Origin: Patescibacteria group bacterium
GTDB taxonomy: Bacteria > Patescibacteriota > Microgenomatia > CAYGWK01
Length of the DNA stretch: 64,000 bases
NCBI GenBank assembly: GCA_049322615.1
Contig: JBMORX010000010.1
Coordinates: 25,416-89,415 of the forward strand
Reading direction: 5' to 3'
The notes under the pieces are model-generated. The model did not search any database. It saw only the letters and a list, made by a program, of their open reading frames with translations, and was not told where the DNA came from. Shown one piece after another: positions 10,940-64,000 of the stretch; position 1 is the stretch's first letter, and every line of letters begins with the position of its first letter. The translations under genes were made by a program, and so were the position numbers.

Positions 10940-10943
10940 AAAA

Positions 10944-22681: not shown

Positions 22682-22724
<43 letters not shown>

Positions 22725-24548: not shown

Positions 24549-24579
<31 letters not shown>

Positions 24580-33116: not shown

Positions 33117-33153
<37 letters not shown>

Positions 33154-35137: not shown

Positions 35138-35174
<37 letters not shown>

Positions 35175-35217
35175 GGACCCGAGAGTCCATATCGACGGTC
35201 CGGTTTGGCACCTCGAT

Positions 35218-36126: not shown

Positions 36127-36723
36127 TGGTCGGCTCATCGCATCCTCCCGCTGAAGTAGGCGGGAAGGGTTGGACTGTTCGTCCATTAAAGCGGTACGTG
36201 AGCTGGGTTCAGAACGTCGTAAGACAGTTCGGACTCTATCCAGAGCATGCGTTGATTTCTGAGGGGAGCTCTCCTTAGTACGAGAGGACTAGGAGGGAGG
36301 AATCCCTGGTGTGTCGGCTGTTCCGTCAGGAGCATCGTCGAGTAGCCACATTCCTAGTGGATAACCGCTGAAAGCATCTCAAGTGGGAAGCCCACCCCAA
36401 GATTAGAAATCGTTAAAGACCCGTCGAAGATGACGACGTTTCCCCCTTCGCTGCTTTGCAGCTTCGGGGGGACCCCGCGTAGCTCGCAAGAGCGAAGTGG
36501 GGGATAGGCTGGAGGTTAAAGGGCAGTAATGCCTTAAGCTTACCAGTACTAATCGGTCAAAAGAATTAGGCCATGAACTAGAATAAATGAAGAGGCGTAA
36601 AAGTTTTTGCGCTTAAGCCTTTCGGTCTCCGGAGCGGACTGGAGCCACTCCTTCCCATTCCGAACAGGATAGTGAAACAGTCCAGCGACCCGTAAAATTT
36701 GCGCAATTTAAGATTTCAAAGTA

Positions 36724-36842
36724 TAATAAATATGCTTCGGTGATAAGAGCGCCGTCGAACTACTCCTTTCCATTCCGAACAGGATAGTAAAAGGCGGCAG
36801 CGGGGACGATAGTTAGACCTTGTGTTTAGCGAAAATACCTCA
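36724..36842 (+). rRNA. rrf: 5S rRNA (119 nt)
   Basis: Helix I GCTTCGG..CCGAAGC; loop C region CCATTCCGAACAGGATAGTAAAAG; followed by a T-run. Confidence 0.65.
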
Positions 36843-37187
36843 TTGCCGAAGCTTTTTTATTGCGCAAATTAACGGGTCAGGGACGTTACGAAGCTTTACG
36901 TCCCGCTGACGATAGTTCCCCGTCTAACGGGGGCGAAAATAGGTCGAGGCCGGAGGACTTGAGCGCAAAAACTTATCCCGTTGAACCGCGTGGTCACGCG
37001 GCATGGGACTTTGCGCGGCGCTTCAAAGACGTTATTCCGCTTACAGGGATATTGTTTTCCTCCCCCAAAAGGGGTAAAATTAAAAAAATCCTAAAAAGAA
37101 AGAAGGTTGAGATGGGTGGGAAAAACAAAAGTATCACAAGAAGCAAAAGTATCACGAGTATCACGGGCTAAAAAAGAACCCCAGACA

Positions 37188-47530: not shown

Positions 47531-50500
47531 TTATTTAATTGTCATCCCCTCGACCGTAACTCCGCTTATATTCATATCTCCAGTTGCCAGATTAACTGTT
47601 TGGGTCATACACCAATCAGAGCTGCCACCACTAACTTCTGCTCTAACTCGATATTGATAAGTATGACCTGAAGAAACGTTGGTATCAGTATGAGAAGTAC
47701 TGTCAATTGCCTTGTCTATCAAAAAAGTAAATCCTCCACTATCGGTATTCTTTTCAATTCGATAACCTGTCTCAACCGCGGTATTGTCCTGCCATTTAAC
47801 TATCAGCTGACTTGGTTGACCGCTATCATCAATCAAACAACCTGTTGGTGGGTAAAATGAAGCGGTGGTAAAAGAATAAACCGGAGACTGGGTGGTACTC
47901 CAGATATTTGAACCGCCTGGATCAATCGCATAAGAGCGCCAATAATAGGTTGTTAGGGGAGAGAGAGCCGATTGAACAGTATAAGTCGCTTGAGTGCCTG
48001 AAGTGTAAGCAGTTCCTCCTTGGGTATTCTGACCCGACCAGCCAGTTTGAGAAGAGGTTTGGTCAAAGGTTTGGCAATTTTGAGTCATTCCAGAGTCGGT
48101 ACAAACTTGAATTTTATATCTTAGGTAATCGCTTTCGGTATCAGTGGCGGTAGTTTTCAAAGCAGGAGTTAGACTAACATTGGTGGCAGCGTTAGTTGGT
48201 GAATCCAAACTTGGCGTATTCGGACGATTGTTGATCGTGTAGTTAATAGTGACACTGGTAAGTTGGGGAGAAACTTGAGTGTCATTGGTGGAAAGAATGG
48301 CGCGATATTGAATATAACGATTAGCTGTCGAGGAAATAGTTGAGCCTCCCGGCGTCGTGAGATAGTTGGTATTTGAGCGGAAATCATCAAGGTACATGGT
48401 AAAACCTTCGGAAGCATCCAAAATTCGCAACCCTAGCCTAACAATGGCATTCCTGTCGGCAACGGAAACATCACCAATATCCCAATATTCTCTTTGCCAT
48501 TTGAAAACATCGGCATCAGTAGAGTAGCCGCCAGAAGGGGCAGTTCCCGACCAGGAAGAAACGGTGACCAGTCCTGAAGAAATTGAACTTACCTCTCCTT
48601 GCATAATATAGAGAGTGCCATTGTAATTTTCTCGGACAATGACGGTGTCGCCTTTATAAAGCCCGGTGGTTGAATCAGGGGTGAATTGGGTGTCCGAAGT
48701 TGAAGTCGGACCATCGGAACCAGCGGTGGTGACAAAATCAACATTTACCTGATGCGTTCTCAAGCTATATTGATAAGCCAGGCGGATTTCCTCAGGCGTG
48801 CGGGCGGTATTAGAGATGCGGACTTCGTCAATAATTCCTTTATAAAATTGAGTCATACTCCCATTATTATTAGCCGCTCCTATAGAAGCATTTGTGACGA
48901 CGAGGGCATTTCTTGAGGTTGTATCACTACCGATTTGATTGCTATCCAGGTAGAGTTTTCTGTCGCTGGCACTTGATTGAACAAAAGCCACATGATGCCA
49001 TAGACCATCGGAGACACTTTGAGAATAGGTAATAATACTACCGCCTGTTCCGCCACTGTCTCGATACCAAACTCGAATCCCACCATTGGTTGAAGGATTG
49101 TCTCCGTAGTAAATAATAAAGAGGTTATTGGACCAGTTTGCCGGGGTTCCCTCTGAGTATACGACCGGAGCAGTGGTGAAGACGCCTAATTCCGCTTTTG
49201 CCCAAAACTCGACTGTATAAGCAGTGCCTTCGGTGACTCCAATATCAGGGAGTCCAATATAGTCATTTAATCCATTAAAATATCTTCCATTACCAATTTT
49301 TCCTTGGGTAATGGTATGCTCTGGACCAGCATAATTACCTAAAGAGGTTAAAGAGCCATTGCTAATTAAATGGTTAGCGTAGCTTAAGGAGCCGGCATTA
49401 TAAATTACCTTTCTTATTGTTCCCGAACCGTTGGTAATGGCGATAGCATCAAAATATCCAGTTCTCGTTGAAGTGGTATCGTCCTCACAGGCAACATCAA
49501 AATAAGTAATTGTTTTGCCAACGTGACCACTTGGTAAGGCGATTTTTCGGTGGTACCATTTCCCTAGAGCCTTGGCATCGAGATCGGTATTAGGATGGGC
49601 ATTCAAGTTATTTTGATCAACAACACCGGCATCTCGAAGAGTTGCTCCATCAGAGGTGGTGTAATCAAAGGCGATCTTGTCAAGCGAAGCTGTCCAATAA
49701 ATATCGTATTCAAGATAATCTCCTGACTGAATAACATAGTCGGCAACTCCAGTTAAATCAATATAAGCATAGGAGTTTCCCGAGGCAGTCATCGAATAAA
49801 CAGTTCTTAAAGAATTATAGGAAGTGCCGTCATTATTGTTTGCTGAACTGTCGTCAAGATTAGTGGATTGGTCATCTAAATGCCAAAGACCCCTAGTGTT
49901 GGTATCTGTTCCATAAACCGAATGGTCCGTTTCCCCAATATAGGTTTCGGCAATGGTTCCTTGACGGTCAGCAGCAAAATAAAAGGGAACTTTGGTTTTG
50001 CCTGAAAGATCGGTTGAGGAGATGGTTTTTTGTAATCGATGGTCTCTTCCTGCCCGATAGGCTTCGGCAATTTCCTCGGCGGTCATCGCCGTCGCTTTGA
50101 CAAATGGTTCATCGATAATGCCGTCGAAAAACGAGGCAGGGGTGGAGGTCATTGACGCCCCAATTCCAAAAGAACCAGTGTTGTCGAAGATACCTGAAGA
50201 ATAAGAAGTTGTTCCGATTAATGCCCCATCAAGATAAATTTTTAAGGCAGAACCATCATAAACTCCGACTGCCAAATGCCATTGGTAAGTGGGAACGGCC
50301 GAAGTGCCCGAGACGCCGGCGAGGGCTGTTCCGTTTGAGGAGACTAAAAAATCTAGAGAGCCGTCGGCTGAACCCGAACAGGCGCCACAAACATAAAGAT
50401 AGTAACCATATTGTCCAGAATCTCCACCTTTGGTGACAATCGAATGGTCGGCGTCAGTGTTGGCATGGGGGTAAACCCAAGCCCCGACTGTCCAGCCACC

Positions 50501-53386
50501 ACTACCGGTATAGTCGAGTTTGGTTGTTCCTCCGCAATTTCCATCGGTACAAGAAAGATATTGACTTGAACCGGAAAATTCCCTGGCGCTTGAGAAAAAT
50601 CCGCTGTTGGTGACGGTTGCCCCGGTTGGGGTGAGGTCATTATTTAAGGAAGTTTCATCTTGAATATAAGCACTCGACCCTCCTGTTTCTTCTAAGTGCC
50701 AAAGACCTCGGGTATTGGCGTCTGTTTGGGGAGCGCCGACAGTGGATTTTAAGGAACCTGTACCTTCCATTTTAATCGTTGATTCATCGGTTTTGGTAAG
50801 CATCGTTGTACTTGAGGTTGACCAATTAGTGGCATCTGAATCCATTGAGGCAATAGCAGTTTCATTGGTGATTGGTCTCCACTCTTCCCAAGTGGAATTG
50901 TCAGCCGAGGTTCGGGTCTGAAATTCCACATCCGCCCCAACCCCGGCAACAGGTTCGGGAGAGGAGTATTGGTGGACCCTTAAGTCATCAACATAAAAAG
51001 TCGTAGTTCCGCCCCAATAGCCCTGAACCCTTATTTGGGTAATGGTTGTAATTTGTCCCGTAAGAGTTCCTACTTGGTTTCCATCTATAAAAAATGTTAT
51101 CTCACCAGTAGATTTCATCCTAATAGCAAATTTATGCCAGCCAGTGGTTCTAGCAACCGTTGTGGCAGTATAAGTGAAAGCTGTATTGTGATATACATAG
51201 TTAGTAGAAGAGCTATCTGTCCAAACTCCAATCCCAACTGTATTGGTGCCATCATATAACCGAATCACCTTAAAGGCGGTGGTGTCCGAGTCATCATACA
51301 TATCAAAAGTAAGATAAATATTGGGAGTAGTAAATGCCTTATAAGCCGTTATTGAGGTATCCACTGAGTTTGTCTGGACGAGCTTGCCGCTATAGCTACC
51401 TCTTTTTGCCTGCTCGGTTGAAGCTGACCAAGTGCCGGCAGTTGGATTGAGAACAGTCCAATCGCTAACATCCCCATCCTCAAAATTATCCCAAAAAGGG
51501 AAAGTAGCCGAGCCATTACTTCCGGTGCTGGCTCCGGAATTTCCATACCACATAAAGATAGTCGTAAAGGAACTGGCGGTGATTGAGTCCACCTCCACCC
51601 AAACCTTTGCCCAGGCGCCATCGGCTTTATCTTCAATCCAATAATCAAGACTTGTTCCTGAAGAATTAGTAAAGCGCAAATCATCAAAGTCTGTTTGCAT
51701 ATTGGAGTCATAGTCAACGTTGACTTTGACTTGATAATTAGTCAAAGTGTTGGAATTTTGGGTATTATCAATAATCACCGGTTTGTAGTTGCTCCAGCCT
51801 GGAAGTGAAGCGCTTGAAGAAGCAGTATCACTCCAAGATAAAGAATCAAGACTGGTAACTTTTGAAGTGCCGGAGGTTAGGTCAATTGAATCAGAAGTGT
51901 GGATTCCATAAGGAAATCTTTGGGCATCCTGGCGAATTTCCTCAGGGGTGCGGGCGATGTCAGAGATGCGGACTTCGTCAATTACACCATTAAAATAATC
52001 GCCACTATACCAAGACGCTTTACCAATTGTCGGGGCAGTGGTGTCTTGAGACAAGGCAGACGCAGTTCCAGTACCTGTCAAAATTCCATTTATATAGATT
52101 TTTATACTTGAACCATCCCAAGTGCCAGCAAGATGGCTCCATGTTCCGCTTGGAAGGGCAACCGTACTTGTTGCAGATGGGCATGTTGATGGGGTGCAGA
52201 TATTAAAAAATGGAATACCGCTACTTGTTACTTCTAATTTATAACCTATCCAATTCCCGCCATACTTTGAAAAAATAGCACAATTGGTATCGGCCCCTGT
52301 ACAGGTAAAATTAGTTGGTTTTACCCAGGCTTCAACAGTAACCGCTGATGTAGGTTTTAGTGAAGAAGAGTCAGAGAAAGAAATATAATCACTTGAACCG
52401 TTAAAACTCCGGGCATTGCCGAATTTGCCGGTGGTGACATTAGTGCTACTTGCTGATGTGCCGGTGTTTGAGTTTCCAGAGCTATCGGCGACAGTGGTGG
52501 TTCCTGAACTTTCATTCATATGCCATAATCCTACGGTCCGAATATCGGCTGCAAGTTCATGGTAGGGAAGCTCAAGTTTTGGCGAGGAGCCGGAACCAGC
52601 ATCGCTAATTCGATTGAAGGTGCCGGTGGAGAATTCAGAAGAGGTATCGTGGACGACCGAAGGGTCAATAATAACCGGATATTGGCGAGCCGGATGAGAA
52701 AGCCAGTCTGAAGAAGGCGAGATGATAATCTCGTAAGACGTAGAACCAGAAAGACTTGAACGCGAAACAACGCGGAGTTCAACCTCGGTGCTTCTGGCGC
52801 CCGCCGCATCAACCATAAAAGGCTTGGGAATATGGAAGCGATATTGACCATCTTGGGTGTCAATAAAGTAAGTTGAAACTCTGCCATCTAAGGATTTCCT
52901 TGGCACCGCATTCTTTAAATTAAGCGCGAATCTAAATTGCTTAATTGCTAGATTGCTAGATTGCTGATTGCTGAGAATAATTTCTTCCTTAATGCCTTTA
53001 TCGTTAAGCGAATATTTAATATCAATTCCCGGCTGGATATCTTTATAAAGAAGTGAGCTACAGTTCACCTCCGAGGTGGAAGAGGCTCCGCCTTCGGCGG
53101 AGAGACACCTCGGAGGTGGATTTCCAAATTCGGCAGGAGAAAATTCTGCGGACGAGTCTTCTTGTTCAAATTTGACTTTGGGTTTGTTTTCTTGAAGCCT
53201 ATCTCCCAGATATACTGCGAAATCTTTAGATATATTTTGATAGAGATAAGAGGTGGTTGGGGGAGCAGGTGATAATTGGGGGACAGAGGCTTTTTTGGGA
53301 GAAGGCTTAATTACGGAAAAAGCTATAATAATTATAATTATTATAATTGTTATAAATTTTATAATCTTTATAATTTTTTTCTTCAT
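47531..53386 (-). CDS. Giant secreted/surface protein (1951 aa) with LamG/concanavalin-like and FN3-like domains
   Basis: N-terminal signal anchor MKKKIIKIIKFITIIIIIIIIAF; three copies of the LamG-type core (SIKIYINGILTG..FNGVIDEVRISDIARTPEEIRQ; LKIYLDGALIGT..FDGIIDEP; KLYLDSNQIGSD..YKGIIDEVRISNTARTPEEIR); Ser/Thr-rich; FN3-like region near the N-terminus. Confidence 0.7.
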   Translation of the reverse strand: MKKKIIKIIKFITIIIIIIIIAFSVIKPSPKKASVPQLSPAPPTTSYLYQNISKDFAVYLGDRLQENKPKVKFEQEDSSAEFSPAEFGNPPPRCLSAEGGASSTSEVNCSSLLYKDIQPGIDIKYSLNDKGIKEEIILSNQQSSNLAIKQFRFALNLKNAVPRKSLDGRVSTYFIDTQDGQYRFHIPKPFMVDAAGARSTEVELRVVSRSSLSGSTSYEIIISPSSDWLSHPARQYPVIIDPSVVHDTSSEFSTGTFNRISDAGSGSSPKLELPYHELAADIRTVGLWHMNESSGTTTVADSSGNSNTGTSASSTNVTTGKFGNARSFNGSSDYISFSDSSSLKPTSAVTVEAWVKPTNFTCTGADTNCAIFSKYGGNWIGYKLEVTSSGIPFFNICTPSTCPSATSTVALPSGTWSHLAGTWDGSSIKIYINGILTGTGTASALSQDTTAPTIGKASWYSGDYFNGVIDEVRISDIARTPEEIRQDAQRFPYGIHTSDSIDLTSGTSKVTSLDSLSWSDTASSSASLPGWSNYKPVIIDNTQNSNTLTNYQVKVNVDYDSNMQTDFDDLRFTNSSGTSLDYWIEDKADGAWAKVWVEVDSITASSFTTIFMWYGNSGASTGSNGSATFPFWDNFEDGDVSDWTVLNPTAGTWSASTEQAKRGSYSGKLVQTNSVDTSITAYKAFTTPNIYLTFDMYDDSDTTAFKVIRLYDGTNTVGIGVWTDSSSTNYVYHNTAFTYTATTVARTTGWHKFAIRMKSTGEITFFIDGNQVGTLTGQITTITQIRVQGYWGGTTTFYVDDLRVHQYSSPEPVAGVGADVEFQTRTSADNSTWEEWRPITNETAIASMDSDATNWSTSSTTMLTKTDESTIKMEGTGSLKSTVGAPQTDANTRGLWHLEETGGSSAYIQDETSLNNDLTPTGATVTNSGFFSSAREFSGSSQYLSCTDGNCGGTTKLDYTGSGGWTVGAWVYPHANTDADHSIVTKGGDSGQYGYYLYVCGACSGSADGSLDFLVSSNGTALAGVSGTSAVPTYQWHLAVGVYDGSALKIYLDGALIGTTSYSSGIFDNTGSFGIGASMTSTPASFFDGIIDEPFVKATAMTAEEIAEAYRAGRDHRLQKTISSTDLSGKTKVPFYFAADRQGTIAETYIGETDHSVYGTDTNTRGLWHLDDQSTNLDDSSANNNDGTSYNSLRTVYSMTASGNSYAYIDLTGVADYVIQSGDYLEYDIYWTASLDKIAFDYTTSDGATLRDAGVVDQNNLNAHPNTDLDAKALGKWYHRKIALPSGHVGKTITYFDVACEDDTTSTRTGYFDAIAITNGSGTIRKVIYNAGSLSYANHLISNGSLTSLGNYAGPEHTITQGKIGNGRYFNGLNDYIGLPDIGVTEGTAYTVEFWAKAELGVFTTAPVVYSEGTPANWSNNLFIIYYGDNPSTNGGIRVWYRDSGGTGGSIITYSQSVSDGLWHHVAFVQSSASDRKLYLDSNQIGSDTTSRNALVVTNASIGAANNNGSMTQFYKGIIDEVRISNTARTPEEIRLAYQYSLRTHQVNVDFVTTAGSDGPTSTSDTQFTPDSTTGLYKGDTVIVRENYNGTLYIMQGEVSSISSGLVTVSSWSGTAPSGGYSTDADVFKWQREYWDIGDVSVADRNAIVRLGLRILDASEGFTMYLDDFRSNTNYLTTPGGSTISSTANRYIQYRAILSTNDTQVSPQLTSVTINYTINNRPNTPSLDSPTNAATNVSLTPALKTTATDTESDYLRYKIQVCTDSGMTQNCQTFDQTSSQTGWSGQNTQGGTAYTSGTQATYTVQSALSPLTTYYWRSYAIDPGGSNIWSTTQSPVYSFTTASFYPPTGCLIDDSGQPSQLIVKWQDNTAVETGYRIEKNTDSGGFTFLIDKAIDSTSHTDTNVSSGHTYQYRVRAEVSGGSSDWCMTQTVNLATGDMNISGVTVEGMTIK

Positions 53387-53946
53387 CTTGATTTTCCTTT
53401 CTTAAACTCTAGTCTTTTTCTAAACAGGTTTTCTCTAAATCCGCCCTCTTTGATAAATCTTTCCTCGGTCCAGCGGAGTTTTTGGTCTAACAGAGAGTTG
53501 GTTTGGTTGATAAGACAGATTAGGGTGTTGGCGGCCGTCTCGGGAGATTTCTGAATATAAATTTTATAATCTTTATAACTTTTATAATTTTTATAGGCGA
53601 TTCTTCGAATCGCCAGGGATCGAGGATCGTCTTTCAGCCAAAGAGTAAGTCCTCTTTGTCTTAAAAAATCTAAGAAGTCGTTTAGAAGTTCTTCGTAGGA
53701 GCCCCGAGAAACTCCTAGCATCTTTAATCTCCCTTCAACGCTTTTTTGGAGGTAGCCCTCGGCAATGCACTGTTTGCCGGATCTTGCGGCTTGAGTCATT
53801 TGCTCTTTTTGGCGAAGAGAGCGGATATAGCGGTCGCAAAACTCAACCGTTCCATCGTAAACAATCTCCGCCTGTTGGAAGAAGGGAAGGGTTTTATAAC
53901 CGCTAGGTTTCAAACTCTGCTTATAACCTTTATAATTTTTATCCAT
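53383..53946 (-). CDS. Four-helix-bundle protein (TIGR02436-like, the '23S rRNA intervening-sequence protein' family) with an N-terminal Tyr/Lys-repeat extension
   Basis: MTQAARSGKQCIAEGYLQKSVEGRLKMLGVSRGSYEELLNDFLDFL matches the family's xQxxRAAxSxxxNIAEGyxR...ARGSxxEL pattern; N-terminal YKNYKSYKDYKIY repeats. Confidence 0.55.
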   Translation of the reverse strand: MDKNYKGYKQSLKPSGYKTLPFFQQAEIVYDGTVEFCDRYIRSLRQKEQMTQAARSGKQCIAEGYLQKSVEGRLKMLGVSRGSYEELLNDFLDFLRQRGLTLWLKDDPRSLAIRRIAYKNYKSYKDYKIYIQKSPETAANTLICLINQTNSLLDQKLRWTEERFIKEGGFRENLFRKRLEFKKGKSR

Positions 53947-53947
53947 C

Positions 53948-56900
53948 TTAATTTATTATCCACCAGTTAAACCTTATCTCTTGGTCAATTGGGGTATCAA
54001 TTCCAACCTTAAACCATTCGCCAGATTTCTTGGCCGAAACGTACAAGACCTTATTTTGAGTATCTGAAACTGGAGTAAGATAAACTAAAGTATTTTCGCT
54101 GACTTTTGGATTAAAAATTGTAAATTCAGTTGAGCCCGCAGGTAAAATTCCCAACCCCGAGGTGGCGTTAGTTCGGATTTCTGCCAGGCTTGCCGATTGG
54201 GTAGCCGAGTAATCGGCGGCAATGACCAGAGAGGCAAATTGGGCTGAACCCGAAGCATCGATTGAGGCGACGGTCTCCCCAAGCGGGTTTTGAATCGCCA
54301 AGAGCTTGCCAAAAGCAGATTCTTCTGGGGAGGTCGAACCTCCGGAGAGGTTCGACCTCTTAAGGACTAAACCAGAAGCCGAGATCTCACCGCCGACTGC
54401 CAGATTGCCGGCGACCTGAACATTGCCATCGGTATCAATCGTCATCTTTCCTGCCAGAATATCAACTGGTCCCCAACCAGAGGACTGAAGACGGAGGACA
54501 GAAGACGGAAGAGAGTTGATACCCGTGCTGTCGATAACAACTGCTCCATCAACCATTAATTGTCCAGCCACAGTCGTGTCAGCCAAAGAGGTTCGGCCTA
54601 AAACCTTTAAGTTTGCGGTGATTTTCAGGTCAGAAGAAGGATCGGTGATTGGCCAAGATTGAGTCTCAGCTAAAAGACTGCTTGCAGTTGCGGTTTCGTT
54701 GGCATATGATAGAGTTGGCGTGGGGTTGGCAGGTTGGCTGGATGGGCTTGTCAAGCCACGTCCATCGGGTTCAACTCCCGACAGCTCCACGCCCTCTTGA
54801 GATTGGGACTTGACAGGCGTGTTATTATCTGTTATATTATTGTCAAGCTTGACAGGCCCATCTATTAGCGAACTTGCTGGACTTACCAGAGCCGCTTCAT
54901 TTGAGGCGGTTTTTTGGTTCTCGAGATTTTCTAACCTTGCCAATAATTCTCCAAAGCTGCCCCTTAAGGCGCTTATTTCTTTAGTTTCTATCTTGTCCGC
55001 GTAGAGGGTGCCGGAAACCGTCGCATCTTGGGTTACTTGTAACGTCTCACTTGTCACCTGTCCGGCGAAGCTTGCTGAGCCGGAAGAATCTATACTCGCC
55101 ACCGTTTCTCCTTGCTCATTCTGAACCAGAAGCTTGCCGAAGCCAGATCCTTCGGAGGTCGAACCTCCTTGGAGGTTCGACCTCTTAAGGGAAATCACGA
55201 TTTCCGAAGAGTCTGGTAATGGTGAAATAATTCCAGTCTCAACCACCGGCGAGATAATCTTCTTCTCGGCGATTAATCTTTGTCCAAAAATCGTTCCTGC
55301 TTCGTCAATTGAGGCAATGGTTTTACCAAGAGAGTCTTTAATCTCAAGAACTTTTTCAGCTACATCAACTGCCTTCTTGGTGTTAATAACTACCTTATTT
55401 AAAGTGGCTACTCCCAATTCGTCAATTAACCAATTGCCGTCCGTTGATTTAATAGTCTTAGTCACTATTTCCTGGGCTTGTATTTGTTCCTCTGGTGGTG
55501 AGTCTTGGTTCCAAGAGAGATTGGCAAAGGCGGTAACTTCTCCTAGGGCATTGATGTCTCCATTGGTTTCAAAGGGAGAAAGGGCGATTCCGATAGTTCT
55601 TACTTTACCGGTCGCCTTCATTGCCCGACCCGGGACAGGTGAGGCCGTCAAGAAATCGCCTCTTTTGATCGAGCCGCCAATTCCAGAAACCTTAACTGGA
55701 ACACGACCCGCAAGAGCAAGAGGATATTTAAATTTAGCTTCGGGCATATCGCCGTCAAGAGTTATAGCGGGCGCAGTCGAAATAATACCCAAAACATCCC
55801 CTTGATTAGCCTTTGTAGTCCTTACCAGGTTTTCGTTGTTATTTGGGTCAACAGCAACTAGTTCTCCCGGTTCAAGGGGCATACTAGCGGGAAACATTTC
55901 TGCTAAATCAAAACCGTTAGATAGACGACAACATTGAGCATACCAACCCGGATTACAAGTTCCGGGGCAGGAGCCTCCCCCTGAAACAGAGGTACATTTA
56001 TAAGTGGTGGAAATATTACTACAAGCAGTATTCCCGGTTATACCATTGCAATCTGCGGAAGTTGTACATTCAATATTTAACGCCGTACCACTTTTTCTTA
56101 TTTGACCAGTAAAGTTAATATCTCCGGAAACATCTAATTTATAGGAGGGCCCCGTCGTCCCGATGCCGACGTTGCCGTTCATATAAATCTTACCTTCACT
56201 ATCTACAATTTCCCCATAACCCGCATGCTTATACATCTGAATGTATGCACCAGCAGTACCTTCGTACAATCTTAATTTCGCTTCGCTACCACTTGTAGAT
56301 GTTCCAGCAACAATGTCCCCTGCAACTGCCAATTTAAAATTTGAACCAAGATTATTCCAGATATTAGAACCAACTTGTGTGAGATACGCTGGACTCGTCG
56401 TCCCGATGCCGACATTGCTACCATCCAGAGTCATTACATTCGCAACACCGAGATTAGTGAAAGTCAATTTACTACTTAAATTTTCGATTCTCCAGGTTTT
56501 TCCTGCGGTAGAGTTTGTAAGGTCCAGTTGGACATCGCCAGCACGTTCAATATCTAAAGCAACTGTTGGACTTGTCGTCCCGATTCCGATATTGCCAGCG
56601 TTGGTAATTCTTAGCCTTTCTGTTGCTCCGGCGTCGCCTCCAACCGAGGTATAAAAAGCCAAATCGCCAGCGTTTAAGGTATAAATCTTGGAAAGTCCGG
56701 AAGTGGGGAGAAGAGTAAGATTGGGGGTGCCGGAAATTGAGGCAATTCCACCCATCGTTAAATTGCCAACATTAATTAAGTTGTCACTTGCAAGAGAAAT
56801 ATTATTTGAGGCAGCGTTAATGGTAATATCTCCTGAACTATTGCTAATTAAAGATTGGGCGCCGCCAACAGTCAAACTTCCACTTTGGGTGGAGGAACCG

Positions 56901-59900
56901 CCGGCATCCAAAGACCATTTAGAAACACCATTATTTTGAATATCAAAGAGTTTCCTGCCAGTAGAGAGAGTATTTGCGGTATTGAAAAGATAAGCAGTAT
57001 TTGAGCCGGTATCAGCCACCGTTGAAAGCAAGGTTAATTGTCCGCTTGCGCCAATGGTAAAAGAGGTATAATTTGAGGCATTGTAGGCAAGCCTTAATTG
57101 CTCGGTTGTCTTTAAGACCTCCAAAAGAGCGTTCGGTGAAGTCGTCCCGATGCCGACGTTGCCGGCGACTAAAAGGGAATTGGTGGAAGCGGCTGGGTCT
57201 AAGAAATAGGCAGTATTGGCGGTATCCACAAACCGAGCGGCATTAACATAGTTTGAAGAATCAATCGTCACTCCGCCGGAATTAAAAGAAGCGGTTCCGG
57301 TGGTAGTAATATTGCCGGCATTAGAAATTGTAAATCTGGGGGTGCCAGAGGAGGAGGCGGTAAAGATGTCATTTACTGTTCCGGTTTCATTTAGGATGGT
57401 CAAAGCCTTGCCGGTGGTAGTGCCATCAACATGAAGTTTGGTTAAAGGAGAGGTGGTGCCAATGCCGACGTTGCCAGAAATATACGTGTTGTGTGCCAAA
57501 ATCCCGTTACCGACAAAGTTATGAGTCCCCTCAACCTCTATGTCATAAACTTGTTCTTCTCCTACATACTTAATGGATTGGATTTTGTCCCACACCACAT
57601 ATGGTTCGGAGTTCGAAGAGCGAAGATCGGAGAAAGAAACGGTAGCGATAGAATCGCCAGGCTGGAGATAGATTACTTTTGACCAGAGGAGGTTTTGAGA
57701 TAATTGATGAGGCTGGTAATCATTTTGCGAATCTGATGGGTTTGTCCCAACAGAGGCTTGATTTGCTGTTCCGTCAGATAGCCTAATTCCACTGCCAGTC
57801 TGAGACAGGCTACTACCTCGAAGAGGCTGCCTCTGGCTTGATAGAGAAACTGGATAAACTCTGTCTTGTGATACCTGCCCGACCCCTCGGCTAGGTTGAG
57901 GAGAATCGAGACCACCGCTCTCCTTAACTGATCCGCCAGACCATACTGTTCGTGTTTGGGAAAATTCGTAATCAGTTGATAAACTGCCTTGACTAAGATC
58001 ATAGTCTTTTTCCAAACCTCCAGTTTCTCGAAGTTGAACTCTTCGTTGGTATTCATCATAAGTTAATTGTACCAGATAGGGATGGTTACCAGTAGTTCTA
58101 ATTTCTTTGCCGCTTTCAGTCTTGAGCTTAAAGACTGGTTTAATCCCCATGTCCAAAAGTTTGTTAATCTTCGCTGGTTGAACTTTACCTGTCTGCTCAT
58201 TCCTTGAGTAAACCAGTGTTCCTGGTTGAACATCTTTAATCTGAACTTCGCTCTTCGAACTTCGATCTTCAGAAACTTCACCTTGTTTATCTAGGTCTTG
58301 AGTAACAATAGAGAGGAGGGTATCACCGGTAACGCACTGACCTTCAACGTGAAGTTTCTGAACAGGCCCCGTCGTCCCGATGCCGACGTTGCCGCTTACA
58401 TATAAAATATTGTTCCCTGCCCCTGGACTTCCACCTACTCCAAACCCCCCGCTGGTATAGAATTGCCCCCACCCAGTCGAGTAAATAATACCCGCTTGAG
58501 TATTATCTGTACGAGTGCTTTCAATAAGAGCAGTATCTGAATCAGCCGCAAAATTCAATGCAGCATTATTAAACCCAGCGCCGATGATAACATTACCTCC
58601 ACTAACATGTAACTTCGCCCCCGGTCCCGTCGTCCCGATGCCGACGTTGCCGGAGGCTAATAACATCGTGTCACTGCTACGTCCACTCTCTCGAAATCCC
58701 AAACCGGCACTTGAGGTAATTCTTGCGTTATTGCTGTCAAAAGTCAGAATATTTCCATAGTTTAAGGTTTCAACACCTTGGGTAGTAACTGTCCAACGAT
58801 TAGCCGTCCCATCTGACAAAATCAGTGAGGGATTTGACGAAGAAGAATCCTGAACAACAAATCTCGCCCCCGGCCCCGTCGTCCCGATGCCGACGTTGCC
58901 GGCGTTAGTGATGGTCATTCTTGGAGTTAGTCCCGCATCTCCACCAACCGAGGTCTGGAAATCAAGCCTTGAGCCATTTAAGACATCAATCGTTCCTGGC
59001 GAGGTTCCTCGTAAAACCAAACTCCCTGAAGCCGAGGCATCTCCGACAATATCAAGCGAATCATCAGTCTTAAGCCAATTGGCGGCCGAGCGGTAAAGAT
59101 TAGTGTCAGTTCCAAAAGTAATTCCCGAGGCAGCGTCGCCATCAGTTGAGGCAAGTTGTAAAGAGTAAGTATCGGCATCAGCAATATAAAGACCAATATC
59201 AGTTGAGCCGCCAGCAGTTTGATTGCCAATGTAGATACCATAATTGTTGGAAAGGGTTCCGCCACCACTATTTATGGCATCACCAACATAAAAGCCGTAG
59301 GCGTTAGTTATTGTTCCGGTTGAGAGATTGGACCGACTGGTATAAAACGAATAGGCATTGTTAACTGTTCCATTAGAGGTGTTTTCTATCGAAGCATAAT
59401 TGCCGGCTGCTTGGGTAACAGTTCCCGAGCCGGCATGGATCGCCTTGGCGTTGGTTCCCCACAGGGCACCGATATTTTGCGCTCCCATTCCGTAAGCCTG
59501 TGCCTGGTGTCCATAGAAGTTGGCGGTTGAGGCGGAGGCTGGGTTGGCGACAGCTTCGGTGTAGAGAGCGGTTACCTCTCCACTGGTGTTTGTAAAAACT
59601 TCTCTAGACATTGTGGTTTTAGTTGTGTCAAAGAAACCGCCGGAGCCGAGGGCAACGTTGCTAGCAGCGAAAAATTGATCATCTGTTCCCAATCTGTTTG
59701 CCGCCGAGCGGTAAAGGTTGGTGTCAGGAGCCCCTGAACCTGAACCCCATCGAAGATAACCAGCACTTGCTCCGGTACCAATGACTTGAAAGTAGGCAGA
59801 ATTGGTGGCAGTTCCTCCAATTAAAAGATCATCAGTAATATTAGTGGGGGATAAAGCCCCGGCGTTTCTCTGCCAATATCCGGAGGTTCCTGTTCCCGGA

Positions 59901-62900
59901 GCGTAGATATTATTAACATAAAGATTATTCCAATATAAAGCAGAGGAGCCCAGATTGTAAGTAGAGGTAGCTGAAGGAAGAAGATTAGCCGTTAAGGAAA
60001 CATCTCCTCCTGAAGGAGCGATGGTTAAATCGCCCCCTGAAGAAACAGTAAAGGTTGTCTGATTTGAACCATCATATTCTAATTCTAGTTGAGTCGCTGT
60101 GCCACGCACCGACAGCTTGCTGTCTGGTGCTGTGGTCCCGATGCCGACGTTGCCGCCAGATTTTAAGTACACCTGATTTGCCGTTGTATCTGTCCCTAAA
60201 GCCACATCAGATCCGCTTGCAGTATTTCGTATTCTTGCAACTCCAGGACTTCCAGGATTTTCTATGGTAATGTCCCCATTGTAGATGTGAAGTTTAGTAC
60301 TTGGTCCCGTCGTCCCGATGCCGACATTGCCTACCGTATTTACCGTCAAAGCCGGTGTCCAAGAGTTAACTCCGGATTTGTAGTCAAGAGTAAGTATGCC
60401 ATTAGTTCTTGGTCTGACTGCTCCTCCCGAAGCAAGATACAGATTACTGGAAACAGAAGCATCGCCGGAGACATCAAGTGTAGCTAAAGGAGAGGTGGTC
60501 CCAATCCCAATCTGACTGCCAGTTTCGTAGATTATCGAATCAGTTAAAGATGAAGAAGTACTCCATTTCGGAATGTAATTTTGCGTTCCTGAACCCGAAA
60601 CCCCACTTGCTCCTGAAGCAACTGCCTTCCAAGAAGAACCATCACAATAGTAGTATTCATCTTGGGCATTGTCATAGTACATTTTCCCTTCAGAGGAAGC
60701 ATTACAAGTTCCGGCATATGCCTGAACTTGCGGACCAAGGGAAAGAGTACCGGAAATAGTCGCATCCTCGGCCAAAGTTAAATCATTGAGAATATAGGTA
60801 TTATGAGCGACAATCCCATTAGCGACAAAATTATGGGTTCCCTCAACCTCAATATCATAGACCTGCTCATGACCTACATACTCAATTGAGGCAATTTTTG
60901 CCCACTTGACTCGGCTGCCAATTCCTTCACCATCCGAGGAGTCCTTCGGCCACCTCGGAGGTGTTCCCTTGGCAGCCTCGTCCGAAGTGTCAGCAACGGC
61001 AATTTCCATTCCCGGCTTAAGGTAAATTACCTTAGTCCATTGTCCATTGACAGGAGAATGATTATCTGTTAGATTGTTTTTAATGGTTTTTGATTTAAAG
61101 CTAGCCAAATTGCTTTCTGATTTTTTCTTAGACATTGCCAAGGCATTTTTTATTGCAACTTTTGTAACACCATCCTTAACAGGAGTCTCTTCAACCCCTG
61201 AACTATTTTTAATATTGACAAAGGGATTAGGTAATGTTACGATGTTTTTAGTCCTTTCCTGGTATTTAGCTAAATTGGAGGAAAGATTATGAATCAAATC
61301 AACTGGCTTGATGTTTTCAACTCGGCGACTACCTTTGGTGTTTTGACTGTTATTGCCGTTGCCTTGTTGTTCTTGCTTTTCCGAAGAGATTTCGGCTCCA
61401 AATCCACCAAGCGATGAGAGTTTAACCAGATACGGATGGTTTCCGGTTGTTCTTATCTGTCTTCCGTCTTCAGTCGTCAGTCTATAGACTGGTTTGACCC
61501 CCATATCCAACAATCCCTTGATTTTCGCCGGCTCGATTTTACCAGTTTTTTCGTTTAAGGAAAGAACATATTCTCCACCTTTAATGTCCTTGATCTGGAC
61601 GAAGGAGATATTAGGTGATTTTTCTTTTTTGTTTTCGCTCTTAGTATCATAGTCTCTTAGTATCTTAGTATCTTCTGTTGCCACGATTGGTAAAAGACTG
61701 TCTCCTGTAACACATTGTCCTTCTACATGGAGCTTTTGGGTAGGACTCGTCGTCCCGATGCCGACGTTGCCGCTACTTCTTTGAATAAACATTCTCGGTG
61801 TCCCTGGATACGCCGCCGATTCATCAGAGATTTGAAAATCCCCATTGGTCGTTGTCATCTGCATACCCCATGAATATGAACCTCTCTGTATCAAGGCTAT
61901 TGCAGGCATGTAAGCCGTACTGCTAACCTCTGCCAAAATTTGACCCTCTGTAGTGGAATCCTTTTTTACATTGAGTGCCCAGCTTGGCCCCGTCGTCCCG
62001 ATGCCGACGTTGCCATCATTTCGGACATAAAGTAGGGAAGTCCCCGAGGAATTGTAAACCTGAAGTCCGGCTTTAGTTGAGTCGGCGGTTGAACCTTGGA
62101 TATAAGTATTGTGAGCCACAATCCCGTTAGCGACAAAGTTAGCCGTATTGGCAATTTGAAGATCATAGACATGCCTTGTACCGGTTTTTTTAATAGAAAC
62201 AATTTTCTCCCAGCCTAGGGTAGGAGACTTGACATCGCCACTTTCATTTATGCTAGAATGGGAATCGGTGAGGAAATTATCTTCAGACCAGCGGAGAGCA
62301 TTTACAGAATTTTGGGCTAATTTTGCCGTTGTTTGGTTAGCCGCAGGGGTTGTCCCCTCATTTGTGACCGGTAAAATTAGTGTTGAAGAAGTTAAATCAG
62401 TGGTCGCCTCTCTCGTTTGGGGTGGAGTTTCTTTATTGTTTATGCTATATTTTAGTAGAGGAGGCAAGAAATGAATTTCTGGCCGGCTTATGCCCTCGCC
62501 TCGGCGATGACGGCGGCGATTATTGTTTTCATTTATTTTCTTGTTAGAAAAGGATAAATTATGTCTGATACCACGGCCACGGTTGTCATCTTGTTGTCCA
62601 TGGTTATTGCTGTCTTTGTTCTCTGGCGTCTTTCCCGCGAGCGTTGAGGAGACCCCTTTAGTCAAGACGGCGATTTCCTGATTTTTATTAAGATAGACGA
62701 CCTTTTCCCAACCTTCTTTAGTTAAGTACGGATGATTTCCGGTGGTTTCGATTCTTTTTCCTGATTCGGTTTTTAGTTCATAGACTTCCTGAATACCTTT
62801 ATCCAGAGTTTTTTCCACTTTCTGCCATTCAAATTTGCCAGTTTGTTCGTTTAAAGAAAGGACTTGGTCGCCAGGTTTTATATCTTTAATCTTCTCTCTT

Positions 62901-63904
62901 CGCCCTTCTCTCTTCTCACTTCTCTCTTCGCCCTTCTCTCTTCTCACTTCTATTAAGGAATTCTCTTCCACACATTCGCCGATGACCTTAAGTTTATTTG
63001 TTCCCGGGTCGGTCGTTCCAATTCCGACATTCCCTAAATTATTAACCGTCAAGGCCGGTGTCCAGGAGTCGACTCCGGATTTATAGGAAAGAGAAAGACT
63101 ACCGCTGGTCCTTGGTCTGACTTCTCCTCCGGCGGCAAGATATAAGTTCCCGGAAACCGAAGCATCTCCAGAAACATCAAGTTTAGCCAGGGGAGAAGTT
63201 GTTCCAATTCCAATCTGGGAACCAGTCTCATAAATAATAGAGTCAGTCAAAGTCGAGGAAGTAGACCACTTGGGAATATAATTTTGTGTTCCCGAACCCG
63301 AGACGCCACTTGTTCCTGAAGCCACTGCTTTCCAAGAAGAACCATCACAGTAGTAGTATTCATTATTAGCATTGTCATAGTACATCTTTCCTTCAGAAGA
63401 AGCGTTACAAGTCCCAGCGTAAGCCTGAACCTGGGGTCCTAAAGCCAAAGTCCCAGAGATAGTGGCATTACCGGCAATATCGAGTTTCTGCGATGGAGAA
63501 GTTGTCCCGATGCCGACGTTGCCGCTATCAATGACCATTCTCGTGCCACCTTGATAGAAACTGAGTTTTCCTCCAGTATCAATATTTTTGCCAATTATCC
63601 ATTTGGTAGAATCTGCATCACCTGTAGCAAAGAAGCCGATTGAAGCTTCTGCATTGGCAGTTGAAGCAATTGCCTGAATTTGGCCATAACTAGTTGTACC
63701 GTACACTGACAGTTTTGCGCTTGGTCCCGTCGTCCCGATGCCGACGTTGCCATTCGTTATCGTCATTGTCTCTGTTCCACCGGCTACTAGACCTAATTTA
63801 TCTGCCGCAGTGCTGTAAAGACCGGTATTTGTATCACCTGTAAATGTTAAAGATGGCGTTGCCGCCGCCCCTGCTGGTAAGAGAGCATATCCAGAAGAAT
63901 TCAC
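53948..63904 (-). CDS. Giant repeat-containing surface protein (>3318 aa), interrupted by three inteins; the N-terminus runs off the window (the same frame stays open to 64000)
   Basis: More than 25 copies of G-N-V-G-I-G-T-T-(S/G)-P modules (DNA motif gtcgtcccgatgccgacgttgcc on the + strand); Ser/Thr/Gly/Asn-rich beta-type repeats; Cys-rich segment TGNTACSNISTTYKCTSVSGGGSCPGTCNPGWYAQCC near the C-terminus. Confidence 0.7.
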   Translation of the reverse strand: MNSSGYALLPAGAAATPSLTFTGDTNTGLYSTAADKLGLVAGGTETMTITNGNVGIGTTGPSAKLSVYGTTSYGQIQAIASTANAEASIGFFATGDADSTKWIIGKNIDTGGKLSFYQGGTRMVIDSGNVGIGTTSPSQKLDIAGNATISGTLALGPQVQAYAGTCNASSEGKMYYDNANNEYYYCDGSSWKAVASGTSGVSGSGTQNYIPKWSTSSTLTDSIIYETGSQIGIGTTSPLAKLDVSGDASVSGNLYLAAGGEVRPRTSGSLSLSYKSGVDSWTPALTVNNLGNVGIGTTDPGTNKLKVIGECVEENSLIEVRREKGEERSEKREGRREKIKDIKPGDQVLSLNEQTGKFEWQKVEKTLDKGIQEVYELKTESGKRIETTGNHPYLTKEGWEKVVYLNKNQEIAVLTKGVSSTLAGKTPENKDSNNHGQQDDNRGRGIRHNLSFSNKKINENNNRRRHRRGEGISRPEIHFLPPLLKYSINNKETPPQTREATTDLTSSTLILPVTNEGTTPAANQTTAKLAQNSVNALRWSEDNFLTDSHSSINESGDVKSPTLGWEKIVSIKKTGTRHVYDLQIANTANFVANGIVAHNTYIQGSTADSTKAGLQVYNSSGTSLLYVRNDGNVGIGTTGPSWALNVKKDSTTEGQILAEVSSTAYMPAIALIQRGSYSWGMQMTTTNGDFQISDESAAYPGTPRMFIQRSSGNVGIGTTSPTQKLHVEGQCVTGDSLLPIVATEDTKILRDYDTKSENKKEKSPNISFVQIKDIKGGEYVLSLNEKTGKIEPAKIKGLLDMGVKPVYRLTTEDGRQIRTTGNHPYLVKLSSLGGFGAEISSEKQEQQGNGNNSQNTKGSRRVENIKPVDLIHNLSSNLAKYQERTKNIVTLPNPFVNIKNSSGVEETPVKDGVTKVAIKNALAMSKKKSESNLASFKSKTIKNNLTDNHSPVNGQWTKVIYLKPGMEIAVADTSDEAAKGTPPRWPKDSSDGEGIGSRVKWAKIASIEYVGHEQVYDIEVEGTHNFVANGIVAHNTYILNDLTLAEDATISGTLSLGPQVQAYAGTCNASSEGKMYYDNAQDEYYYCDGSSWKAVASGASGVSGSGTQNYIPKWSTSSSLTDSIIYETGSQIGIGTTSPLATLDVSGDASVSSNLYLASGGAVRPRTNGILTLDYKSGVNSWTPALTVNTVGNVGIGTTGPSTKLHIYNGDITIENPGSPGVARIRNTASGSDVALGTDTTANQVYLKSGGNVGIGTTAPDSKLSVRGTATQLELEYDGSNQTTFTVSSGGDLTIAPSGGDVSLTANLLPSATSTYNLGSSALYWNNLYVNNIYAPGTGTSGYWQRNAGALSPTNITDDLLIGGTATNSAYFQVIGTGASAGYLRWGSGSGAPDTNLYRSAANRLGTDDQFFAASNVALGSGGFFDTTKTTMSREVFTNTSGEVTALYTEAVANPASASTANFYGHQAQAYGMGAQNIGALWGTNAKAIHAGSGTVTQAAGNYASIENTSNGTVNNAYSFYTSRSNLSTGTITNAYGFYVGDAINSGGGTLSNNYGIYIGNQTAGGSTDIGLYIADADTYSLQLASTDGDAASGITFGTDTNLYRSAANWLKTDDSLDIVGDASASGSLVLRGTSPGTIDVLNGSRLDFQTSVGGDAGLTPRMTITNAGNVGIGTTGPGARFVVQDSSSSNPSLILSDGTANRWTVTTQGVETLNYGNILTFDSNNARITSSAGLGFRESGRSSDTMLLASGNVGIGTTGPGAKLHVSGGNVIIGAGFNNAALNFAADSDTALIESTRTDNTQAGIIYSTGWGQFYTSGGFGVGGSPGAGNNILYVSGNVGIGTTGPVQKLHVEGQCVTGDTLLSIVTQDLDKQGEVSEDRSSKSEVQIKDVQPGTLVYSRNEQTGKVQPAKINKLLDMGIKPVFKLKTESGKEIRTTGNHPYLVQLTYDEYQRRVQLRETGGLEKDYDLSQGSLSTDYEFSQTRTVWSGGSVKESGGLDSPQPSRGVGQVSQDRVYPVSLSSQRQPLRGSSLSQTGSGIRLSDGTANQASVGTNPSDSQNDYQPHQLSQNLLWSKVIYLQPGDSIATVSFSDLRSSNSEPYVVWDKIQSIKYVGEEQVYDIEVEGTHNFVGNGILAHNTYISGNVGIGTTSPLTKLHVDGTTTGKALTILNETGTVNDIFTASSSGTPRFTISNAGNITTTGTASFNSGGVTIDSSNYVNAARFVDTANTAYFLDPAASTNSLLVAGNVGIGTTSPNALLEVLKTTEQLRLAYNASNYTSFTIGASGQLTLLSTVADTGSNTAYLFNTANTLSTGRKLFDIQNNGVSKWSLDAGGSSTQSGSLTVGGAQSLISNSSGDITINAASNNISLASDNLINVGNLTMGGIASISGTPNLTLLPTSGLSKIYTLNAGDLAFYTSVGGDAGATERLRITNAGNIGIGTTSPTVALDIERAGDVQLDLTNSTAGKTWRIENLSSKLTFTNLGVANVMTLDGSNVGIGTTSPAYLTQVGSNIWNNLGSNFKLAVAGDIVAGTSTSGSEAKLRLYEGTAGAYIQMYKHAGYGEIVDSEGKIYMNGNVGIGTTGPSYKLDVSGDINFTGQIRKSGTALNIECTTSADCNGITGNTACSNISTTYKCTSVSGGGSCPGTCNPGWYAQCCRLSNGFDLAEMFPASMPLEPGELVAVDPNNNENLVRTTKANQGDVLGIISTAPAITLDGDMPEAKFKYPLALAGRVPVKVSGIGGSIKRGDFLTASPVPGRAMKATGKVRTIGIALSPFETNGDINALGEVTAFANLSWNQDSPPEEQIQAQEIVTKTIKSTDGNWLIDELGVATLNKVVINTKKAVDVAEKVLEIKDSLGKTIASIDEAGTIFGQRLIAEKKIISPVVETGIISPLPDSSEIVISLKRSNLQGGSTSEGSGFGKLLVQNEQGETVASIDSSGSASFAGQVTSETLQVTQDATVSGTLYADKIETKEISALRGSFGELLARLENLENQKTASNEAALVSPASSLIDGPVKLDNNITDNNTPVKSQSQEGVELSGVEPDGRGLTSPSSQPANPTPTLSYANETATASSLLAETQSWPITDPSSDLKITANLKVLGRTSLADTTVAGQLMVDGAVVIDSTGINSLPSSVLRLQSSGWGPVDILAGKMTIDTDGNVQVAGNLAVGGEISASGLVLKRSNLSGGSTSPEESAFGKLLAIQNPLGETVASIDASGSAQFASLVIAADYSATQSASLAEIRTNATSGLGILPAGSTEFTIFNPKVSENTLVYLTPVSDTQNKVLYVSAKKSGEWFKVGIDTPIDQEIRFNWWIIN
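57488..58336 (-). mobile_element. Intein C (283 aa) with an embedded alternative-frame four-helix-bundle ORF
   Basis: ..KLHVEGQ|CVTGDTLLSIV...TTGNHPYLVQL...THNFVGNGILAHN|TYIS; the central about 400 nt encodes a TIGR02436-like protein in a different frame. Confidence 0.7.
57673..58059 (-). CDS. Four-helix-bundle protein (TIGR02436-like, 128 aa) encoded inside intein C in an alternative frame
   Basis: FEKLEVWKKTMILVKAVYQLITNFPKHEQYGLADQLRRAVVSILLNLAEGSGRYHKTEFIQFLYQARGSLFEVVACLRLAVELGYL matches the family consensus closely. Confidence 0.6.
   Translation of the reverse strand: MMNTNEEFNFEKLEVWKKTMILVKAVYQLITNFPKHEQYGLADQLRRAVVSILLNLAEGSGRYHKTEFIQFLYQARGSLFEVVACLRLAVELGYLTEQQIKPLLGQTHQIRKMITSLINYLKTSSGQK
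60800..61714 (-). mobile_element. Intein B (mini-intein, 305 aa)
   Basis: ..KLHVEGQ|CVTGDSLLPIV...TTGNHPYLVKL...THNFVANGIVAHN|TYIL. Confidence 0.7.
62108..62974 (-). mobile_element. Intein A (mini-intein, 289 aa) in the giant protein
   Basis: ..KLKVIGE|CVEENSLIEV...TTGNHPYL...FVANGIVAHN|TYIQ: Cys1, block B TxxH, terminal HN, +1 Thr; low-complexity linker instead of an endonuclease domain. Confidence 0.7.
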
Positions 63905-64000
63905 TCCAAACAGATCACCAGAACCAACGGTGAGGAGATAGGCAGGTGAAGCATCCCCGATGCCGACGTTGCCGGTTGTATCTATGACTACTTTGCCCCT

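Follow-up and report, generated by a model that had tools for sequence, protein, structure and literature searches.

According to intein theory, these elements survive at conserved sites of essential enzymes. Proteins with several inteins include cyanobacterial DnaE, DnaB, and ribonucleotide reductase, and there the inteins occupy different, non-homologous catalytic sites. Hypervariable, exported surface proteins are, as Amitai et al. reportedly set out in 2003, the classic context of bacterial intein-like (BIL) domains. In fractured genes (Dassa et al. 2009, PMC2677866), an intein is split into two halves, and the gene of a free-standing endonuclease lies between them. The present analysis concerns a 64,000-nucleotide (nt) window, the whole stretch of DNA analyzed (positions 25,416 to 89,415 of contig JBMORX010000010.1, assembly GCA_049322615.1), from a bacterium of the Patescibacteria, or Candidate Phyla Radiation (CPR). 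A giant open reading frame (ORF) on its minus strand carries three inteins, I1, I2, and I3. They are probably genuine class-1 mini-inteins (Cys1, Thr+1) of a DnaB-intein-like clade that is specialized on the GNVGIGTT junction of tail-fiber-like proteins.

Three inteins in a giant repeat protein

The giant ORF occupies 53948..64000 (-) and comprises the C-terminal 3350 codons of a 5631-amino acid (aa) tail-fiber-like repeat protein that is predicted to be membrane-anchored. Counted from its first GTG (63904 = aa 1), the segment 53948..63904 (-) encodes 3318 aa. No in-frame stop occurs upstream as far as base 64000, and the gene therefore runs off the window. Over its 3350 codons, the ORF matches residues 2282-5631 of P0238 (NCBI MFZ5366523.1, 5631 aa) with 100% identity. 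A previous sequence-only reading had described a giant ORF with three inteins; the ORF is real and the inteins are present, but it is the C-terminal part of the 5631-aa protein and not a whole gene. An assembly chimera or other artifact of a repetitive metagenomic gene is vanishingly improbable. The gene is indeed highly repetitive and most homologs lie on short contigs, but the frame is open across 10 kb, the identical protein is encoded on a 161.7-kb contig of an independent NCBI metagenome-assembled genome (MAG), the 3′ end is also found on a 3.2-kb Logan contig (run SRR32167786), and hundreds of other assemblies contain this architecture.

The whole ORF matches the Pfam model PF14890 (Intein_splicing; curated cut-off, 35.8 bits) with E = 1.1e-59 over three stretches. 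I1 lies at 62108..62974 (-) (aa 311-599, 289 aa, E = 3.5e-23), I2 at 60800..61714 (-) (aa 731-1035, 305 aa, E = 2.5e-22), and I3 at 57488..58336 (-) (aa 1857-2139, 283 aa, E = 1.1e-20), in agreement with the three elements of about 283-305 aa recognized before. PF14890 had been taken for a BIL-type model in that reading; it is the intein splicing model. It is also the only strong Pfam match of the window inteins, with secondary, weak matches to PT-HINT. The full-length protein holds five inteins, two of them upstream of the window, that are 34-64% identical overall and fall into two types. Intein 1 and I1 are type a, and intein 2, I2, and I3 are type b.

I1, I2, and I3 all begin with Cys1, contain TTGNHPY in block B and VYD, which includes the block-F Asp, end in AHN, and are followed by Thr at +1. 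The canonical rule deduced from the letters (Cys1, TTGNHPY, His-Asn, Thr+1) is thus seen in each copy, and the block-B Thr and His, residues whose lack would speak against inteins, are present in all three. The 44 complete relatives from other genomes show no variation at Cys1, TT..HPY, the block-F Asp, or AHN, and C1, TT, HPY, D, and HN are invariant in an alignment of eight sequences. Thr is at +1 in 99/99 relatives, Tyr at +2 in 85/99, and Gln at -1 in 68/96. The nearest relative of I1 is P0016, at 39%. In block F, I2 and I3 keep the usual His (THNF), but I1 has Ala588 in its place (TANF, codon 62141-62143). This His aids C-terminal cleavage in other inteins. The TANF variant is common to I1 and the upstream intein 1 of the full-length protein, and the Ala is probably tolerated because it is kept in two copies that are only 51% identical.

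One repeat junction, occupied and empty

All three inteins are inserted at GNVGIGTTxPxxKLxVxG(Q/E)↓C...HN↓TYI, where arrows mark the splice sites. The junction of I1 reads GNVGIGTTDPGTNKLKVIGE↓CVEENS...AHN↓TYIQGS, with the N-extein part at 62975..63034 (-). I2 is flanked as GNVGIGTTSPTQKLHVEGQ↓CVTGDS...AHN↓TYILND (N-extein part, 61715..61771 (-)) and I3 as GNVGIGTTGPVQKLHVEGQ↓CVTGDT...AHN↓TYISGN (58337..58393 (-)). The common module context noted in the sequence-only reading is as described. The last two N-exteins begin with an exact 24-nt word (61748-61771 and 58370-58393, respectively) that is considered below. The C-extein of I3, TYISGNVGIGTT (57452..57487 (-)), is the commonest C-extein among relatives, and the next repeat motif follows 4 residues past the splice site.

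The same gene contains empty versions of this junction. Module copy A (63035..63463 (-), aa 148-290) and module copy B (60329..60763 (-), aa 1048-1192) have about 80% DNA identity and opposite intein occupancy: copy A has an empty junction upstream and I1 downstream, and copy B has I2 before it and an empty junction downstream. The occupied site upstream of copy B reads KLHVEGQ[I2]TYILNDLTLAED-ATISGTL, and the empty site upstream of copy A reads KLDIAGN-ATISGTL. The 12 C-extein residues that accompany I2, TYILNDLTLAED (60764..60799 (-)), have no counterpart in the intein-free paralogous junction GNVGIGTTSPSQKLDIAGN-ATISGTLA (63443..63523 (-)) ahead of copy A. Of the five copies of the module in the full-length protein, three stand behind an intein and two do not. 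Intein-free homologs resemble spliced products, with KLHVEGN-TYVSGNVGIGTT and LHVxG(D/N)(T/S)Y.. at the corresponding position. Ser is about as frequent as Thr at empty sites, in contrast to the strict Thr+1 after inteins, and occupied junctions are enriched for His at -5, Glu or Val at -3, and Gln at -1 relative to 267 empty repeats. Comparison with orthologs lacking the insertions had been suggested earlier; empty paralogous junctions and intein-free homologs supply that comparison, and no close ortholog was found for it.

The N parts of I1-I3 are mutually 51-60% identical (about 75% in DNA), and each intein has a closer relative in another genome. These two observations rule out recent intragenic copying among I1-I3. 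Another pair has a different history. Intein 2 of the full-length protein (residues 1502-1792) and I2 are ~99% identical in their splicing parts and flanks, and their linkers are ~30% identical in the same frame. The identity begins exactly at GNVGIGTT and extends into the C-extein module. A frameshift as the source of the linker difference was rejected, because stops are abundant in the alternative frames and the two linkers can be aligned without a change of frame. The mosaic is better explained by gene conversion than by simple duplication, and its sequence pattern suggests two separate conversion tracts. Spread between paralogous repeat units, proposed in the sequence-only reading, gains support from this ~99% identity and from the module found three times with and twice without an intein, with the nuance that the three window copies are themselves old, separate lineages. 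Within the gene, spread would occur when cassettes of an intein plus its module are duplicated or undergo gene conversion.

HINT fold, linkers, and predicted splicing

The AlphaFold2 model of I3 has a Hedgehog/intein (HINT) fold built from two confident lobes, with 130 residues at a predicted local distance difference test score (pLDDT) ≥90. Linker residues 122-212 have pLDDT <50 and are disordered in the model. The top Foldseek match is the Npu DnaB intein (4o1r; E = 5e-11, TM score 0.84), the Ssp DnaB mini-intein is also matched, and nearly all of the 52 PDB matches at E ≤0.001 are inteins. A phmmer comparison of I3 with 4o1r gives 1.7e-18. BIL-like autoprocessing domains, which would cleave the giant protein or attach it without ligating the flanks, had been raised as an alternative to inteins. 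The host, a hypervariable, exported surface protein, suits such domains, as do the weak secondary PT-HINT matches, and the His-to-Ala change in block F of I1 could favor side reactions. PF14890 nevertheless outscores the other models by a wide margin, the closest structural matches are true inteins, with the BIL2 structure (6y75) only 24th in the Foldseek list (E = 1.5e-5), and His-Asn terminates every copy. The uniform Thr+1 of the 99 relatives also differs from the mixture of Ser and Thr at empty sites. We consider the BIL explanation quite unlikely because of this conserved +1 nucleophile and the similarity to inteins in both sequence and structure.

The linkers of I1-I3 are polar and of low complexity. 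The I1 linker follows the WEKVVYL..EIAV strand, the I2 linker separates block B from the WTKVIYL strand, and the I3 linker is likewise placed before the equivalent strand. No Pfam domain, NYN, or PD-(D/E)XK signal was found in the window linkers in any frame, and I1-I3 are classified as mini-inteins because their linkers lack a nested nuclease signal. Decayed NYN or PD-(D/E)XK domains were considered as the origin of the linkers and rejected; a clade-specific NYN hidden Markov model (--max, E up to 10) matched nothing in I1-I3. A tblastn search in all frames returned a single in-frame match of 22 residues between I1 and one NYN intein (E = 0.001 per query), which scored above 200/200 shuffles for that single sequence only. 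It lies at 62402-62467 (aa 480-501, LPPLLKYSINNKETPPQTREAT) and has 45% identity to the NYN domain of the L033 intein. This stretch may be the last remnant of a lost nuclease.

Inactive relics, retained in the mature fiber as globular inserts with flexible spacers, would also have lost the nuclease domain and have long, disordered linkers, and the evidence for splicing is indirect. Against this explanation, the catalytic positions are kept in five copies that are 34-64% identical and in the 44 complete relatives. Such conservation across divergent copies is not expected without selection for splicing, and the relic explanation is very unlikely.

Judged from their residues, I1-I3 most likely splice. 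After translation, the N and C lobes would fold into the HINT domain across the 120-150-residue disordered linker. An N-S acyl shift at Cys1 would be followed by trans-esterification onto the Thr+1 hydroxyl, cyclization of the terminal Asn with the help of the penultimate His, and an O-N shift. The spliced junctions would read ..VIGE-TYIQ.., ..VEGQ-TYIL.., and ..VEGQ-TYIS.., and the expected tryptic junction peptides of the spliced product are LHVEGQTYISGNVGIGTTSPLTK and VIGETYIQGSTADSTK. The predicted mature lengths after excision are 4147 aa for the full protein and 2441 aa for the window part. The window copies would have lost the nuclease and retained splicing, which would persist because its loss would destroy the host protein.

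Nucleases in relatives of the window inteins

An NYN (PF01936) domain lies between the splicing lobes in 13/44 complete relatives, with a best E of 6e-27. Its position corresponds to one or other of the two linker positions of the window inteins, and the earlier view that linkers stand in place of an endonuclease domain holds in this respect. Examples are P0031 (intein 41-457, NYN 197-347), P0032 (intein 166-546, NYN 305-446), and P0015, and the NYN loci include L018, L025, L033, L036, L042, L047, L053, L065, and L068 among others. The FIDxxN and GDxDF motifs of NYN are kept in the relatives, by reading of their sequences. DUF3800 is present in 2/44 complete relatives, and LAGLIDADG or HNH is present in none of the 44. 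NYN-bearing and mini forms are interleaved as nearest neighbors, as expected from repeated nuclease loss.

Other related loci are split. The N and C halves of the intein lie in separate ORFs, 0.5-4 kb apart, at L020, L022, L038, L039, L041, L045, L048, and L074. All eight have a PD-(D/E)XK ORF (PF12705) either between the halves or fused to the N half; in L045, for instance, the nuclease is encoded at 10360-11925. From sequence, the NYN and PD-(D/E)XK proteins of these relatives are likely homing enzymes.

Distribution of the lineage

A search with I3 and its flanks detected 283 proteins at E <1e-5, and the named ones are mostly from Patescibacteria. Counts from the flank-containing profile are inflated by extein repeats and were not used as family size. 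A genome scan with one genome per species yielded at least 560 coding stretches, and the best 79 loci were examined. These comprise ~33 CPR loci, 10 from Omnitrophota, 2 from Elusimicrobia, and 7 on DPANN-labeled contigs. The same junction is present in nearly all of 120 protein matches and in most of the Patescibacteria loci among the best 79 genome loci. More distant relatives are the DnaB and DnaE inteins of cyanobacteria and actinobacteria.

Giant ORFs with 2-6 inteins are recurrent among the genome loci, and three DnaB loci (L049, L051, L080) have two inteins each. Among the top 135 representatives, 82 have an intein and 30 have two or more. The nearest relative lies within the same protein for 22/51 inteins of multi-intein proteins. 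The host had been called highly atypical for inteins; it is atypical for the literature, but it is not rare in databases.

Omnitrophota loci L007, L011, L012, L013, L015, and L032 have a clade member in giant ORFs of up to 5615 aa. Their N-extein is ..GL↓CVT(A/G)DTLLP, without GNVGIGTT, and Thr+1 is kept. L034, a 5329-aa ORF, contains six intein N-parts and C-parts; its contig is labeled Gammaproteobacteria, possibly through a binning error. To our knowledge, six inteins would be at or above the highest number reported for one polypeptide. In IMG/VR, just two short contigs bear the fiber intein, and each is wholly inside one giant ORF. A phage origin was rejected: the other viral matches are terminase, DnaB, or ribonucleotide reductase inteins, and bona fide phage contigs did not show the fiber intein.

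An invariant 24-nucleotide word

GNVGIGTT is encoded by the exact 24-nt word GGCAACGTCGGCATCGGGACGACG at 7/13 sites of the giant gene (56153-56176, 58370-58393, 58628-58651, 58877-58900, 61748-61771, 61991-62014, and 63728-63751). Five further sites differ from it by ≤2 bases, and shuffles yield none. The word has G or C at each third position in a gene that otherwise favors A/T-ending codons. By the gene's own codon usage, the word is expected with a probability of 2.7e-6 at any one site (binomial tail, 1.8e-36). It accounts for 70/176 motif sites in the genome loci (GC 0.36-0.60) and is present in at least 120 viral contigs (median GC 0.44). The synonymous conservation is confined to the GNVGIGTT codons; the neighboring Pro, Leu, Val, and Gly residues are conserved as well, but their codons show no such conservation. 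Counted downstream from the word, the inteins are inserted after 33 nt. The constancy of the word could reflect a recombination site, biased gene conversion, or a nuclease target.

The word enters into another explanation, a fiber-diversification system. Nuclease-bearing copies would cut near the word, repair would move intein-plus-module cassettes, and similar or split copies could cross-splice into alternative fibers. The intein 2/I2 mosaic fits this scheme, with ~99% identity of splicing parts and flanks from GNVGIGTT onward and ~30% in the linker, and so do the word as an island of nucleotide identity, the 22/51 inteins nearest to a copy in the same protein, and the split forms with nuclease genes. 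The word is, however, equally conserved in intein-free fiber genes and in phages, I2 and I3 share no conserved DNA at the insertion point itself, and nuclease activity and cross-splicing are hypothetical parts of the scheme. We regard diversification as an unlikely function and favor specialization of the mini-inteins on the GNVGIGTT junction.

The host protein

The exteins match PHROG tail-fiber families 9942 and 18345 at 1e-14 to 1e-18. A region at 55466..56041 (-) appears related to Peptidase_G2, the intramolecular-chaperone (IMC) autocleavage domain found in fiber relatives (BLASTP, 29% identity, E = 2e-15 to residues 84-277 of P0108). PF11962 spans residues 91-184 of P0108, and the IMC similarity of the window protein is indirect, through P0108; Peptidase_G2 is below threshold in the Pfam search of the window protein. 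A cluster of eight Cys residues at 55928-56068 (-) precedes this region. The extein Cys residues are arranged as C-x19-C pairs plus this cluster, and the window inteins have no Cys other than Cys1.

The N-terminus of the full-length protein (residues 1-110, upstream of the window) has a weak match to the phage-integrase SAM-like domain (E = 2e-6). The NCBI record is titled 'MAG: phage integrase SAM-like domain-containing protein [Patescibacteria group bacterium]', a name that rests on the 50-residue N-terminal domain only. The first 80 residues are very basic and are followed at about residues 80-110 by the sole strong hydrophobic segment of the protein. The protein may thus have an N-in signal anchor with a 5500-residue fiber outside the cell; the intein-bearing fiber is predicted to be extracytoplasmic because of this basic head and single hydrophobic segment at the N-terminus.

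Genomic neighborhood

Two genes at 47531-53386 and 53383-53946 (-) lie directly downstream of the giant ORF, overlapping or abutting, and probably form one operon with it. Their products are a 187-aa protein weakly similar to the 23S rRNA intervening-sequence protein and a 1951-aa protein with four LamG domains, DUF2341, and fn3. The window also contains an rRNA operon rich in selfish elements, with features at 22676-25051, 23474-23703, 25522-25974, 26301-26807, 31503-35313, 35322-35993, and 36634-36851. The 16S gene is stretched to 2.4 kb and has a group I intron, the 23S gene spans 3.8 kb, and the gap between them is 6.4 kb. Three LAGLIDADG ORFs surround the operon, and a partial second 5S gene adjoins the full copy. 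The 16S group I intron, the 3.8-kb 23S gene, and the LAGLIDADG ORFs fit a CPR genome.

Discussion

Several points weigh against the assignment of I1-I3 as splicing mini-inteins of a junction-specific clade. Splicing is deduced from conserved residues and fold. The block-F His that is Ala in I1 is invariant in the 44 relatives. A close ortholog without the intein was not found; among the extein matches, identity reaches 41% at best and length 650 aa at most. A convincing nuclease remnant is absent from the window linkers beyond the 22-residue match in I1. The predicted export behind an N-terminal signal anchor implies that splicing would have to precede or follow translocation, an unusual situation for an intein. 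The assignment stays probable with these points taken into account.

A wider proposal can be built on this assignment, and we hold it only tentatively, with more doubt than confidence. The clade may have made the GNVGIGTT junction its homing niche, with NYN and, in split forms, PD-(D/E)XK proteins as unrecognized homing nucleases; the 24-nt word would be the landing pad, or would act as a homology arm. As intein-plus-module cassettes moved by homing and conversion, the inteins would take part in the shuffling of CPR surface-fiber modules, and splicing would perhaps take place after export.

Full-text literature, a coverage that leaves out most subscription journals, yielded no description of inteins in CPR or fiber proteins, no report of NYN inteins, and no description of the GNVGIGT motif. 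The fiber-protein intein lineage is large and apparently undescribed. The conserved site that it occupies lies at a structural repeat junction, in a giant protein that is not an enzyme and is hypervariable and exported. As this junction is repeated in each gene and present in many genes, one lineage fills up to six sites per polypeptide. The locus is a natural system for homing into repeated targets, for gain and loss at paralogous sites, and for splicing of exported proteins, and NYN and PD-(D/E)XK are possible new homing nucleases. Related mini and split inteins with Cys1, Thr+1, and short, defined extein needs are of practical interest for protein engineering. Automated annotation overlooks such inteins, as the naming of the 5631-aa protein after an N-terminal domain of 50 residues illustrates.

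Several described systems resemble this locus in part. Eight related loci have the order N half, nuclease ORF, C half, like the fractured genes (PMC2677866). The published fractured-gene cases are reported to lie in DNA-metabolism genes and to involve another endonuclease family. Unlike those, the hosts here are giant fiber proteins and the nuclease is PD-(D/E)XK, and the window inteins are contiguous mini-inteins that are not split. As in BIL systems, HINT domains are found in hypervariable extracellular bacterial proteins, but the elements described here have all intein blocks, a strict +1 nucleophile, and empty-site homologs. The protein also shares the presence of several inteins per polypeptide with the known multi-intein proteins, but here they occupy one repeated junction (five in the full-length protein, six in L034).

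The Npu DnaB (4o1r) and Ssp DnaB (1mi8) mini-inteins are the best matches in sequence and structure, with the same HINT fold, the same Cys1, TxxH, Asp, and His-Asn set, and very similar F and G blocks (VFDLTVPG.HNFVAN.I.VHN). In contrast to these, the host is a structural, exported repeat protein and not a helicase, the +1 residue is Thr and not Ser, several copies are present per protein, and the long, disordered linkers are of natural origin and not the result of engineered deletions. On the extein side, the resemblance is to phage tail fibers and tailspikes. The exteins match tail-fiber PHROGs, the protein has a region with indirect similarity to Peptidase_G2, and fiber relatives carry Peptidase_S74 or Peptidase_G2 domains, as phage tailspikes do. 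Unlike phage fibers, the host of I1-I3 is a 5631-aa cellular protein with a predicted N-terminal membrane anchor.

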